Positions 26,057 through 46,206 of a stretch of DNA of 64,000 bases are shown here, piece after piece (within the stretch, counting starts at the first letter, position 1; each line of letters starts with the position of its first letter). The notes beneath the pieces are model-generated. The model had not been told where the DNA came from and searched no databases. It saw nothing but the letters and a program-made list of their open reading frames with translations. The DNA comes from Candidatus Bathyarchaeota archaeon (GTDB lineage: Archaea; Thermoproteota; Bathyarchaeia; Bathyarchaeales; Bathycorpusculaceae): positions 2,208,001-2,272,000 of the forward strand of contig CAVZJV010000014.1 in NCBI GenBank assembly GCA_963775685.1, in the 5' to 3' direction. The translations under genes and the position numbers were made by a program.

Positions 26057-26059
26057 ATT

Positions 26060-29092
<3,033 letters not shown>

Positions 29093-34884: not shown

Positions 34885-35405
34885 TTAATGGAGGTTTTTG
34901 ATAGCTCCGAACCATCTTTGGAATATGCCTGTTCTTTTCAGTAACTTGAAAATTGGCCATCCGACTGAGTACGTCATGCAATAGTGTTTCCAATGGAGAC
35001 GTAAGCGATAGTCAGGGAAGAAGTGGCAGTACCGTACAGGGTCAGACAGCATCCATCCGACTGTTGTGCCTAAGACAGCGGAGTAAGCGACGCATGTTCC
35101 AATCACTGTATAGTCGTTTTTAGTGCGTTTGTAAATGTAGTAGACTACAAAGGACATGCAAATGAAGGAATAGTGTTGAGAAGTCGATGGACCAAATGGC
35201 GAAGAAATGTTTCCAACAAATACTCCTATTGTGTGACCTAAAACCCCTGGCGATGCCCAGCAATGGGAACTGCTCCCAGCAAGGATCGGCTATTCGAAGT
35301 TGAATTGGTCCATAAGAGAATAGTCCGAGGTATACGACAACTAATAGCTGCATAAAGTGAGCATAAATTGCTATAAGGGCTATATCTTTAGATGTGTATT
35401 TTCAA
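34885..35405 (-). CDS. queT: QueT-family queuosine-precursor transporter (ECF S-component type), multiple frameshifts
   Basis: Joined frames: YTSKDIALIAIYA.LYAA...FSYGPIQLRIAD matches the QueT signature; lies directly upstream of queC. Confidence 0.8.
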
Positions 35406-35410
35406 TGCAT

Positions 35411-35481
35411 TTCTCCCTACTCCCGGGTTTTATTTTTGGTTGGCGGAACGGGTAGGAGAATCCACTCACCCGCCAATTGCC
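35411..35481 (-). ncRNA. Candidate cis-regulatory RNA (riboswitch-like pseudoknot) in the queT-queC leader
   Basis: TTGGCGG/CCGCCAA stem; loop TTCTCCTACCCG complementary to CGGGAGTAGGGAGAA (SD region); A-rich linker; TATA-like TTTTTAGG ~27 nt upstream. Confidence 0.65.
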
Positions 35482-35589
35482 TATAAAAGTTCCAATGTCC
35501 CCTAAAAAGCTTTAGTTAAACAATTTAATTTTGAAAAGGTTCTTGCAAACATCTTAGATTCAAAAACTAAGTTGATGAAGAGTAAGACT

Positions 35590-35960
35590 CTCAATTTGAC
35601 CAAACATTTTCAAAGTAGGCAACCAACACTTTTACGAACTCAGGATTGTCTGATCATAAACTTGGCGCAATTTCATTATCATACACCGTTCTTACACACA
35701 TGTTCGCATTCTTTCCATCATAGATCGCTGCCTTAATTGGGACAGCGTTAATTACACATCGAACCTCGAACAATGGATTAATTTGTCTCTTTATCATCTT
35801 GATAAATTTCTCGTCACTGCATCTCTGTGTTATGATCCGAATTTTCACCCCTTTCTTCAGAGTCTGCTGATATATTTGAAAGTGACTAAAAAACAACGGT
35901 CTGATAGTAAACCAGTCACCCATAACGTCAATGTTGGTTTTTGCATTTGAATCCTCAAAT
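35590..35960 (-). pseudogene. TrmB-type regulator C-terminal domain remnant
   Basis: LKKGVKIRIIT...PLFEVR...AIYDGK...PSL*SDNPEFVKVLVAYFENV; premature stop, N-terminal HTH absent. Confidence 0.6.
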
Positions 35961-36208
35961 TCAAATTGAGTTGCTTATGGTGGCTCTTTTTAGATAAAAA
36001 AATTGCAATTTTTCTTTTTTTGTTATGTCTTTAACAATTATACTATGTTGCGCTCGGTCAGCTAAAAGATACTTTTTCATTACATTTATTCAATAGTTAC
36101 ATAATGTTTGATCGATTACTTGGTGCTGATAAGATAGTTTGATTGCGACTTTTTATGCTTTGATGACCAAAAATAATCTTTCCACACACGTCTGGCCATG
36201 GCAATTTG

Positions 36209-36254
36209 TTAGTCAAGAAAGTTTGACTAAATTTAGTCAAGGAAATTTGACGAA
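36209..36254. promoter_or_regulatory. Tandem operator array TTAGTCAA-N6-TTGAC(T/G)AA x2
   Basis: Contains the perfect 18-bp palindrome TTGACTAAATTTAGTCAA at 36223-36240. Confidence 0.6.
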
Positions 36255-36308
36255 AATGCATTTTAAAGGTGGATGAAAATAGGGAGTCAATGGAGAGATG
36301 AGCAGGAT

Positions 36309-36479
36309 ATGGCGTTAAACCACTATATAATAAACCATAGACTTCTGATACAAATGCAGAAGAACGGATGCATTTTCTGTGCAATATGTCATCAACCCAT
36401 CGTTGAAGGGCAGCGAGTAGCTTCCAGAAAAAGCACATCTGTGCGGCATGAAGAATGTTATCAATGGTCATTTGTTTAA
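36309..36479 (+). CDS. Small zinc-finger protein (CxxC...HxxC)
   Basis: FCAICHQPIVEGQRV...RHEECY; AGGA SD upstream. Confidence 0.6.
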   Translation: MALNHYIINHRLLIQMQKNGCIFCAICHQPIVEGQRVASRKSTSVRHEECYQWSFV

Positions 36480-36680
36480 CGCAAAGCCTCGCAAACTTTG
36501 AAATAAGCAAGAAGGGATGCAAGTTAGATAAGGCGTCTCGGTTCGTTAACATAGCAAATAAACGTGCACAGCTAACAGCACCTTTTGCGAAATATTAATA
36601 AATCTCTCGGAAAGATTAGATGATGCTACTTCCTAGTGGATGGCATTCCGATTAAACGGAGTTTTAGGGAGCACAAAACT

Positions 36681-45491: not shown

Positions 45492-46206
45492 ATGATTGAA
45501 ACAGAACAAATTTCATTACCTATTTCACCCACAAAAAAATACGTTGCTGAATTGATTGAAACAATGGTGCTGGTGCTGATTGGCTGCGGTAGCGCGGTGA
45601 TTGCAGGTTACGCCATTGGATTCTCTGGTATAGCTTTTGCTTTCGGACTTGCTGTGTTAGCTATGGTTTACGCAATAGGCGCAATTTCCGGTTGTCACAT
45701 TAACCCGGCAATTTCAATATCAATGTTGGTTGCAGGAAAACTAACTGCAAAAGATACGGCGTTCTACATCGTTTCTCAATGTGCAGGCGCTATCATCGGT
45801 GCAGGCATACTCTACGCAATAGCTGTTGGAAACCCATCGTTTAATTTAGCGATAAGTGGTTTAGGTCAAAACGGTTATGACCTAGCATCTCCTGCCCGTT
45901 ACTCTTTGGCATCTGGCATTAATTGCTGAAATTGTCTTAACGTTCATATTCGTTTTCGTTGTCCATGGCTCCACCAGCGAACGCGCACCTAAAGGATTTG
46001 CAGGCTTAGCAATCGGCTTAACCCTTGTGCTGATCCACCTTGTTGCGATACCTATTGATGGTACATCCGTTAACCCTGCAAGAAGCTTGGGACCAGCACT
46101 CTTTGCGGGCACCACAGCGTTAAGTCAACTTTGGCTGTTTATTGTGGCACCAATAATAGGTGGAATTCTAGCGGCGGTCGTCTGGAAATTCTTCAAGCAA
46201 AATTAA
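45492..46206 (+). CDS. Aquaporin (MIP family, AqpZ-like), frameshift near 45915
   Basis: [11 protein letters not shown] and second NPA ([13 protein letters not shown]) in the downstream frame. Confidence 0.88.

Follow-up and report, generated by a model that had tools for sequence, protein, structure and literature searches.

A conserved Shine-Dalgarno-sequestering leader RNA upstream of queT in Bathyarchaeia: a candidate riboswitch sensing preQ0 or a closely related compound

Introduction

Does the short leader of the queT-queC operon of a Candidatus Bathyarchaeota archaeon harbour a riboswitch and, if so, does it belong to a class already known? The locus lies on the minus strand of a 64,000-nucleotide stretch of contig CAVZJV010000014.1, which was analysed as a whole and is called the window here. 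A preliminary description of this DNA had proposed a pseudoknot that hides the Shine-Dalgarno (SD) sequence, had interpreted it as a 7-deazaguanine-sensing translational switch unlike the three preQ1 classes, and had known of no validated archaeal example. Known riboswitches are rare in archaea, where TPP and fluoride are the classes most seen according to the consulted part of a 2017 survey (PMC5473149). The 2024 review from which the definitions of the preQ1 classes are taken names, in the portion of its text consulted, only bacterial phyla, and the word 'archaea' is absent from its text (PMC11625349). The limited library of literature searched on archaeal preQ-type or queT riboswitches likewise yielded no archaeal example.

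Results

Layout of the leader and its promoter

The elements of the leader and the two genes behind it are listed below by window position, together with what each assignment is based on.

35501-35513, minus strand: BRE/TATA-like promoter element AAAGCTTTTTAGG, conserved in homologous leaders
35477-35481, minus strand: putative transcription start region, from the TATA position and the usual archaeal spacing
35470-35476, minus strand: 5' strand of helix P1, TTGGCGG, with conserved core GGCGG (core pairs 99.8% paired in 85 distinct sequences)
35461-35469, minus strand: 5' part of loop L1, invariant GUGAG followed by UGG(A/G) (22 leaders)
35449-35460, minus strand: 5' strand of helix P2, comprising anti-SD-like TTCTCC, TAC and CCG (pairing statistics, duplex energies)
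35447-35448, minus strand: L2, invariant UU linking P2 to the 3' strand of P1 (alignments A2 and A3)
35440-35446, minus strand: 3' strand of P1, CCGCCAA (P1 covariation)
35426-35439, minus strand: L3, A-rich linker ending in invariant AAA-(A/C)CC (A45, A47-49 and C51-53 invariant)
35411-35425, minus strand: 3' strand of P2, comprising CGG, G-A-GUA and the SD sequence GGGAG(AA) (duplex energies, covariation)
35403-35410, minus strand: start codons ATG (35410-35408, followed by CAT TGA) and TTG (35405-35403), from reading the sequence
34885-35405, minus strand: queT, frameshifted as assembled, 18 non-triplet indels against the orthologue L138
34204-34868, minus strand: queC, frameshifted as assembled, PF06508 at 160.5 bits, one internal TAG

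Re-reading of the sequence bore out the arrangement that had been proposed. TTGGCGG (35476-35470) and CCGCCAA (35446-35440) form a 7-bp stem around a loop of 23 nt (35469-35447), and within this loop TTCTCCTACCCG (35460-35449) can pair with CGGGAGTAGGGAGAA (35425-35411) if two bulges are allowed. The A-rich linker occupies 35439-35426, and the SD sequence GGGAG sits 7 nt ahead of the TTG. The TTG frame reaches TAA after 5 codons; this stop and the ATG, with the CAT TGA behind it, had gone unnoticed earlier. In relatives, queT starts at the aligned ATG in L138, L028 and L034 and at the aligned TTG in L026, L030 and L041. By alignment with relatives, the queT starts of L088, L118 (CTG), L119 (ATA), L146 (ACG) and L013 (ATT) seem to be non-canonical, at sites where the relatives carry ATG, GTG or TTG.

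The 3' end of this genome's own 16S rRNA reads GGATCACCTCCT, which identifies the GGAGG-type tails of these leaders as SD sequences and the loop as a mimic of the rRNA tail. Folded as a single sequence, the leader has a minimum free energy of -20.9 kcal/mol (z = -0.14), and 82 of 200 shuffled sequences were equally stable; since this energy is unexceptional, structure beyond chance becomes visible only through comparison.

The BRE/TATA-like element described earlier was found at 35513-35501, and its TATA is kept at a fixed distance in 84 leaders. Counted from the first G of GGCGG, these leaders have 90-95% A/T at positions -32 to -29, an A-rich stretch at -40 to -36 lies ahead of this A/T block, and the TATA box spans -34 to -28. 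The distance from TATA box to start in archaea is usually about 26 nt. From this spacing and the position of the TATA box, the transcript would begin 3-6 nt ahead of P1.

The queT promoter is separated from the proteasome beta gene by an ORF-poor spacer of about 1.1 kb (window 35514-36635), which is syntenic with L028; within it, 36205-36485 shares about 78% identity with L028, L033 and L034. No Pfam family matched the ORFs tested in this spacer.

A conserved RNA family upstream of queT

We searched for queT loci with the Pfam QueT model and read the upstream regions of the best 30. A conserved RNA of about 65 nt, named motif A here, lay directly upstream of queT in 21 of these, a second leader (motif B, see below) in 6 and neither in 3; two of the last three are the second queT of an operon whose first queT carries motif A. 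Twenty-two leaders, gathered through the QueT protein and not through the RNA, made up alignment A2. Across it 23 positions never vary; most of these lie outside the variable helices, and they include GCG, GTG, CCGTT, CGC, A-AAA and CCCGG. G9, T10 and G11 belong to the invariant set, and A12 and G13 come close to it.

A covariance model built from the same 22 queT leaders (R1) gave a single match in the 3.06-Mb genome, at 35408-35477 (80.9 bits, E = 1.2e-20). R1 matched 115 of the 151 genomes of an order-level sample, three of them with two copies and the others with one. Matches were present in 88/151 genomes of a class-level sample (E <= 1e-6) and in 27/151 of a phylum-level sample (E <= 1e-5), 15 of the latter lying outside the class, in four families. 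In addition, sequence collections were scanned with a pattern that fixes GTGAG, CCGTT(C/G)CGC and AA(A/C)CCCGG. Among species genomes, R1 confirmed at least 46 loci (46 of the 80 among the matches listed). By title, 40 of the confirmed loci among the matches listed belong to Bathyarchaeota or Bathyarchaeia, 2 to Methanomethylicota, 2 to Nitrososphaeria/-ota, 1 to an 'archaeon' and 1 to Promethearchaeota. The remaining 34 of the 80, with bacterial titles and one of Thermoplasmata, were not confirmed by R1 and were discarded as chance matches. The same pattern in metagenome contigs gave at least 67 loci confirmed by R1 (67 of the 80 among the matches listed), and the other 13 of these 80 were likewise set aside as unconfirmed chance matches. 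Motif A is thus found in Bathyarchaeia, in metagenome-assembled genomes (MAGs) labelled Methanomethylicota and in a few other archaeal MAGs, and the leader is kept ahead of queT orthologues within Bathyarchaeia and outside them, a conservation on which the preliminary description had made its own proposal depend. That motif A is a real, widespread and structured cis-regulatory RNA we regard as very nearly certain.

Covariation in both helices of a predicted pseudoknot

Pairing was evaluated in alignment A3, which has 89 rows (85 distinct sequences) and was aligned to a model that knew only P1. As 46 of the 89 rows were selected by the pattern that fixes GTGAG, CCGTT(C/G)CGC and AA(A/C)CCCGG, invariance in A3 at these positions arises partly by construction, and the invariance counts cited here come from A2. 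Compensatory changes occur in both P1 and P2 among the 85 distinct sequences. The outer pair of P1 is GC in 72, AU in 5, GU in 5 and CG in 2 of them, and the inner pair is GC in 77 and CG in 8; in these 8, C38, the partner of G8, is swapped to G together with C8. The junction pairs CCG/CGG of P2 are invariant and, as they never vary, are supported by their position only. The other seven pairs of P2 are paired in 86% of cases and five of the seven change on both sides, for example UA 48, CG 19 and UG 8 at one pair, or CG 58, UA 18 and UG 7 at another.

Over the whole structure, 66 cells were changed on both sides, whereas shuffling gave 21.2 ± 3.5, with none of 500 reaching the observed value, and sliding the partners gave 5-32; because the sequences are related, shuffle tests overstate significance and these figures are not probabilities. 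Duplexes between loop and tail were more stable for cognate combinations (mean -12.6 kcal/mol) than for non-cognate ones (-10.9 kcal/mol), a value as low being reached in 0 of 5000 permutations. Similarly, loop and tail types were matched, TCCC with GGGAG in 38/40, CCTCC with GGAGG in 20/24 and CCCACC with GGTGG in 4/4. Among the extra copies of the two-copy genomes, even combinations that are not SD-like co-vary, TCCGAC with GTCGGA and CTTCCA with TGGAAG, which indicates that P2 is selected as an RNA-RNA pairing and is not a mere by-product of likeness or complementarity of its strands to the rRNA tail.

The predicted fold is therefore an H-type pseudoknot, made up of P1 (5-7 bp), an L1 of 15-25 nt, P2 (10-12 bp), the 2-nt UU of L2 and an A-rich L3 ending in CC. 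UU precedes the 3' strand of P1 in all 85 distinct A3 sequences, and T30 and T31 are invariant in A2. The length of L3 ranges from 7 to about 20 nt across homologues.

An alternative pairing that would free the SD had also been suggested. The helix CGGGUG/(C/U)ACCCG, which takes in most of that pairing, can be paired in 97% of sequences, but none of its pairs changes on both sides and the 8 sequences with C8 disrupt it; we regard it as no more than a possible conformer. A second SD-free conformer would contain a hairpin within L1, in which GUGG pairs with CCAC, where the anti-SD strand ends in (C/U)AC; it is paired in 90.5% of sequences with weak covariation and is also predicted by RNAalifold. 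Neither of the two SD-free conformers displays convincing covariation. For the copy in the window, rough energies were -20.8 kcal/mol for the SD-free fold, -9.3 kcal/mol for P1 alone and -14.2 kcal/mol for the loop-tail duplex, so that the SD-free and SD-buried states could plausibly lie near enough in energy to let a ligand tip the balance.

Genes behind motif A and the 7-deazaguanine pathway

Of the first complete ORFs after motif A, 66 of 69 at genome loci and 52 of 59 at metagenome loci encode QueT. The 128 complete cases taken together comprise 118 QueT, 2 QueE-like proteins and 8 members of an unassigned membrane family. In the two QueE-like cases (L083 and L238) the ORF encodes a radical-SAM protein. 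Its top NCBIfam matches are without exception to QueE models, full-length but below the equivalog cut-offs, and in L238 a QueC-like gene follows. QueC accounts for 10 of 30 second or third ORFs after motif A, and queC adjoins queT in this genus. No conserved regulator gene adjoins motif A in the loci read.

In L140, L127, L239, L240, L253, L268, L276 and L298 a membrane protein of about 230-245 aa takes the place of QueT behind motif A. This family has no Pfam or NCBIfam match and shows weak profile similarity to QueT (73% probability, hhalign); it may be a new deazapurine transporter.

In this genome (G000) and 60 relatives, QueT was found in 50/61, QueC in 31/61 and QueD in 12/61. As QueT is common and QueD is present in only 12 of the 61, most of these archaea appear to depend on salvage. 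The presence of queC without queD suggests salvage of a compound such as 7-carboxy-7-deazaguanine, which would then be converted to preQ0. In the genome studied here the archaeosine tRNA-guanine transglycosylase (ArcTGT) is intact, and profile searches found no other QueT and no QueD or YhhQ. The established substrate of ArcTGT is preQ0. For this reason, and because motif A is tied to genes of import and synthesis in organisms that mostly salvage, preQ0 is the favoured ligand.

Motif B, a second leader of queT

Motif B is a leader of about 40 nt just upstream of queT in L009, L010, L016, L019, L029, L032 and L209-L214. It begins with a 5-bp P1, UU and CCG; an 8-nt loop whose last bases are AC comes next, followed by an A-rich linker, (C)CCGG and finally the SD sequence. 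It precedes the same gene as motif A, has the same placement relative to the promoter and a 5-bp P1, and in both leaders a loop CCG pairs with CGG of the tail, the A-rich linker ends in CC and the SD overlaps P2. Unlike motif A, it has UU after the 5' strand of P1 and AC before the 3' strand, and it lacks the anti-SD mimic. The UU and AC are among the marks of preQ1 class I named in the consulted part of the review (PMC11625349); no match of motif B to RF00522 exceeded the cut-off. The six strong motif B matches in the order-level sample all fall in genomes without an R1 match, which suggests that the two leaders are interchangeable.

Comparison with known riboswitch classes

At the gathering thresholds of Rfam, the whole window yielded only the LSU rRNA and one tRNA. 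About 194 kb separate the LSU rRNA gene (window 26059-29091) from the nearest SSU gene, which means that the rRNA genes are unlinked; the two SSU copies lie at C14:2431328-2432822 and C13:15805-17300 of G000. Over the leader (35300-35620, 321 bases), preQ1-I, -II and -III remained unmatched even at E <= 10, which agrees with the earlier impression that none of the three fits. Permissive Rfam scans of the leader, of 20 related loci and of two motif B leaders gave chance matches only. In five genomes, RF00522 produced nothing over its cut-off and sub-threshold matches elsewhere, while one control genome passed; RF01054 gave nothing over the cut-off in the five genomes, again with one control genome passing. 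RF02680 also gave nothing over the cut-off in the five genomes, where the control is weak as the control genomes failed too. Motif A thus lies outside the Rfam families, including those of preQ1-I, -II and -III.

For the structural comparison, the classes are taken as the consulted part of the review defines them (PMC11625349). With preQ1-I (RF00522), and with its type III especially, motif A has in common an H-type pseudoknot, an A-rich third loop and an SD sequence buried in P2, and both stand upstream of queuosine-precursor genes and act on translation, a mode that we infer for motif A. In class I, UC or AC precedes the 3' strand of P1 and the cytosine reads the ligand, whereas motif A has UU there and the next base belongs to a covarying P1 pair. 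The aptamer of motif A is also about twice as long, with its L1 of 15-25 nt and a P2 of 10-12 bp made from the mimic of the rRNA tail, and it is archaeal, whereas preQ1-I is reported, in that part of the review, from bacterial phyla. The preQ1-II class (RF01054, the COG4708 or queT motif) likewise precedes queT, measures about 70-100 nt and holds the SD wholly within the pseudoknot helix under translation-only control, and the SD of motif A similarly lies in the pseudoknot helix. However, preQ1-II is an HLout pseudoknot with four helices (P1-P4) described only from Bacillota, whereas in motif A two covarying helices are supported, together with an optional, weakly supported hairpin in L1. Both preQ1-III (RF02680) and motif A contain, inside the aptamer region, an anti-SD element that pairs with an SD located downstream; the two differ in helix count and topology, and the SD adjoins the aptamer in motif A but is distant in preQ1-III.

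State of the operon and alternative explanations

Both genes of the operon that had been proposed do lie behind the leader, but as assembled they are frameshifted, with indels relative to the intact orthologue L138 (83% identity), which served as reference. Against it, queT has 18 non-triplet and queC 4 frame-disrupting indels; no intact queT ORF stands behind the leader, and a PF06177 profile search of the whole genome gave no match. The leader could accordingly be thought a relic in front of an operon that has decayed in this genome, a reading to which the indels, the missing PF06177 match and a TGA at codon 3 lend weight, as does the fact that none of the 27 full-length QueC matches in relatives contains an internal stop. 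The substitutions argue otherwise. At codon positions 1/2/3 they number 19/5/55 in queT (70% at the third) and 20/12/64 in queC (67%), as between two intact orthologues (32/17/76 in queT and 13/14/84 in queC), and this bias should fade in a long-dead gene while that many indels gather. The leader itself is intact, unlike the genes behind it, the ArcTGT gene is intact in a genome with no other QueT, QueD or YhhQ detected, and an aquaporin (MIP) gene of the window is also split, pointing to local assembly errors. This gene occupies two overlapping frames of the plus strand (window 45492-45929 and 45886-46203), the second of which matches Pfam MIP positions 132-221. Owing to the third-position bias, the undamaged leader and the split aquaporin, the indels in queT and queC are probably errors of assembly and not decay, and a relic is unlikely. 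Among the public sequencing runs searched, the best covers 0.05 of the sampled words of the stretch, and none is an RNA run.

If the leader is functional, it may still work without a metabolite, as an SD-sequestering element under the control of a protein or a tRNA, as a constitutive attenuator or as a stability element. P2, long at 10-12 bp, might form without any ligand and, judged by the loop-tail duplex energy, could be stable alone; an anti-SD mimic would lower translation by itself. A plain hairpin, however, needs neither 23 invariant positions nor an A-rich L3 nor a pseudoknot, the association is specific to genes of 7-deazaguanine transport and synthesis in several operon layouts, and no conserved regulator gene was found beside the motif in the loci read. 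We consider a leader of this kind rather unlikely. Still less probable is that motif A is no new class but a preQ1-I riboswitch that has diverged very far and enlarged its L1. Motif A and class I both have the H-type topology, an A-rich third loop and an occluded SD, and motif B, which bears class I marks, resembles motif A in its loop CCG and its tail AAAA(C)CCGG. Against this stand the missing RF00522 match in the 321 bases around the leader at E <= 10, the whole genomes that stay below a cut-off which a control genome exceeds, the UU in place of UC/AC in 85 of 85 distinct sequences, and the sizes of L1 and P2. Chance complementarity devoid of function, for which the single-sequence z of -0.14 might speak, is refuted by hundreds of homologous copies, by covariation and by the fixed genomic context, and we give it practically no credence.

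Discussion

The reading that we favour, and consider likely, is that motif A represents a new structural class of SD-sequestering riboswitch responding to preQ0 or a close relative. Sensing of a ligand is suggested by the gene context, and the nature of that ligand, its pocket and the switching are proposed on the same footing. The leader would form the 5' untranslated part of the queT(-queC) mRNA, with an L1 that carries the invariant GUGAG and the mimic of the 16S rRNA 3' end, and with a P2 in which CCG, AC and the anti-SD of the loop would pair with CGG, GU and the SD sequence. A translational OFF switch is the most likely mode of action. A 7-deazaguanine, most probably preQ0, would bind at the junction of P1 and P2 and stabilise the pseudoknot, so that the SD is buried and both import (QueT) and synthesis (QueC, QueE) are shut down. 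When the ligand is absent, GUGG of L1 would hold the anti-SD strand and leave the SD free.

A more far-reaching interpretation, put forward tentatively and rated a little short of an even chance, takes motif A as the fourth structural class of 7-deazaguanine riboswitches and the first in Archaea, tuned to preQ0 rather than preQ1. It would be old, being common to Bathyarchaeia and Methanomethylicota-labelled genomes; motif B would be a smaller, class-I-like sister that replaces it in some lineages, and the membrane family of about 230 aa would be a likely new deazapurine transporter.

If the assignment of motif A is right, the known reach of RNA-based metabolite sensing in Archaea would grow, and a new fold would be added for a ligand family that features widely in studies of RNA structure and in drug design. 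Being short, motif A is directly testable in vitro, and it flags candidate new transporters. It would also provide a handle on the salvage of archaeosine precursors in Bathyarchaeia, where most of the genomes sampled possess QueT and lack QueD.
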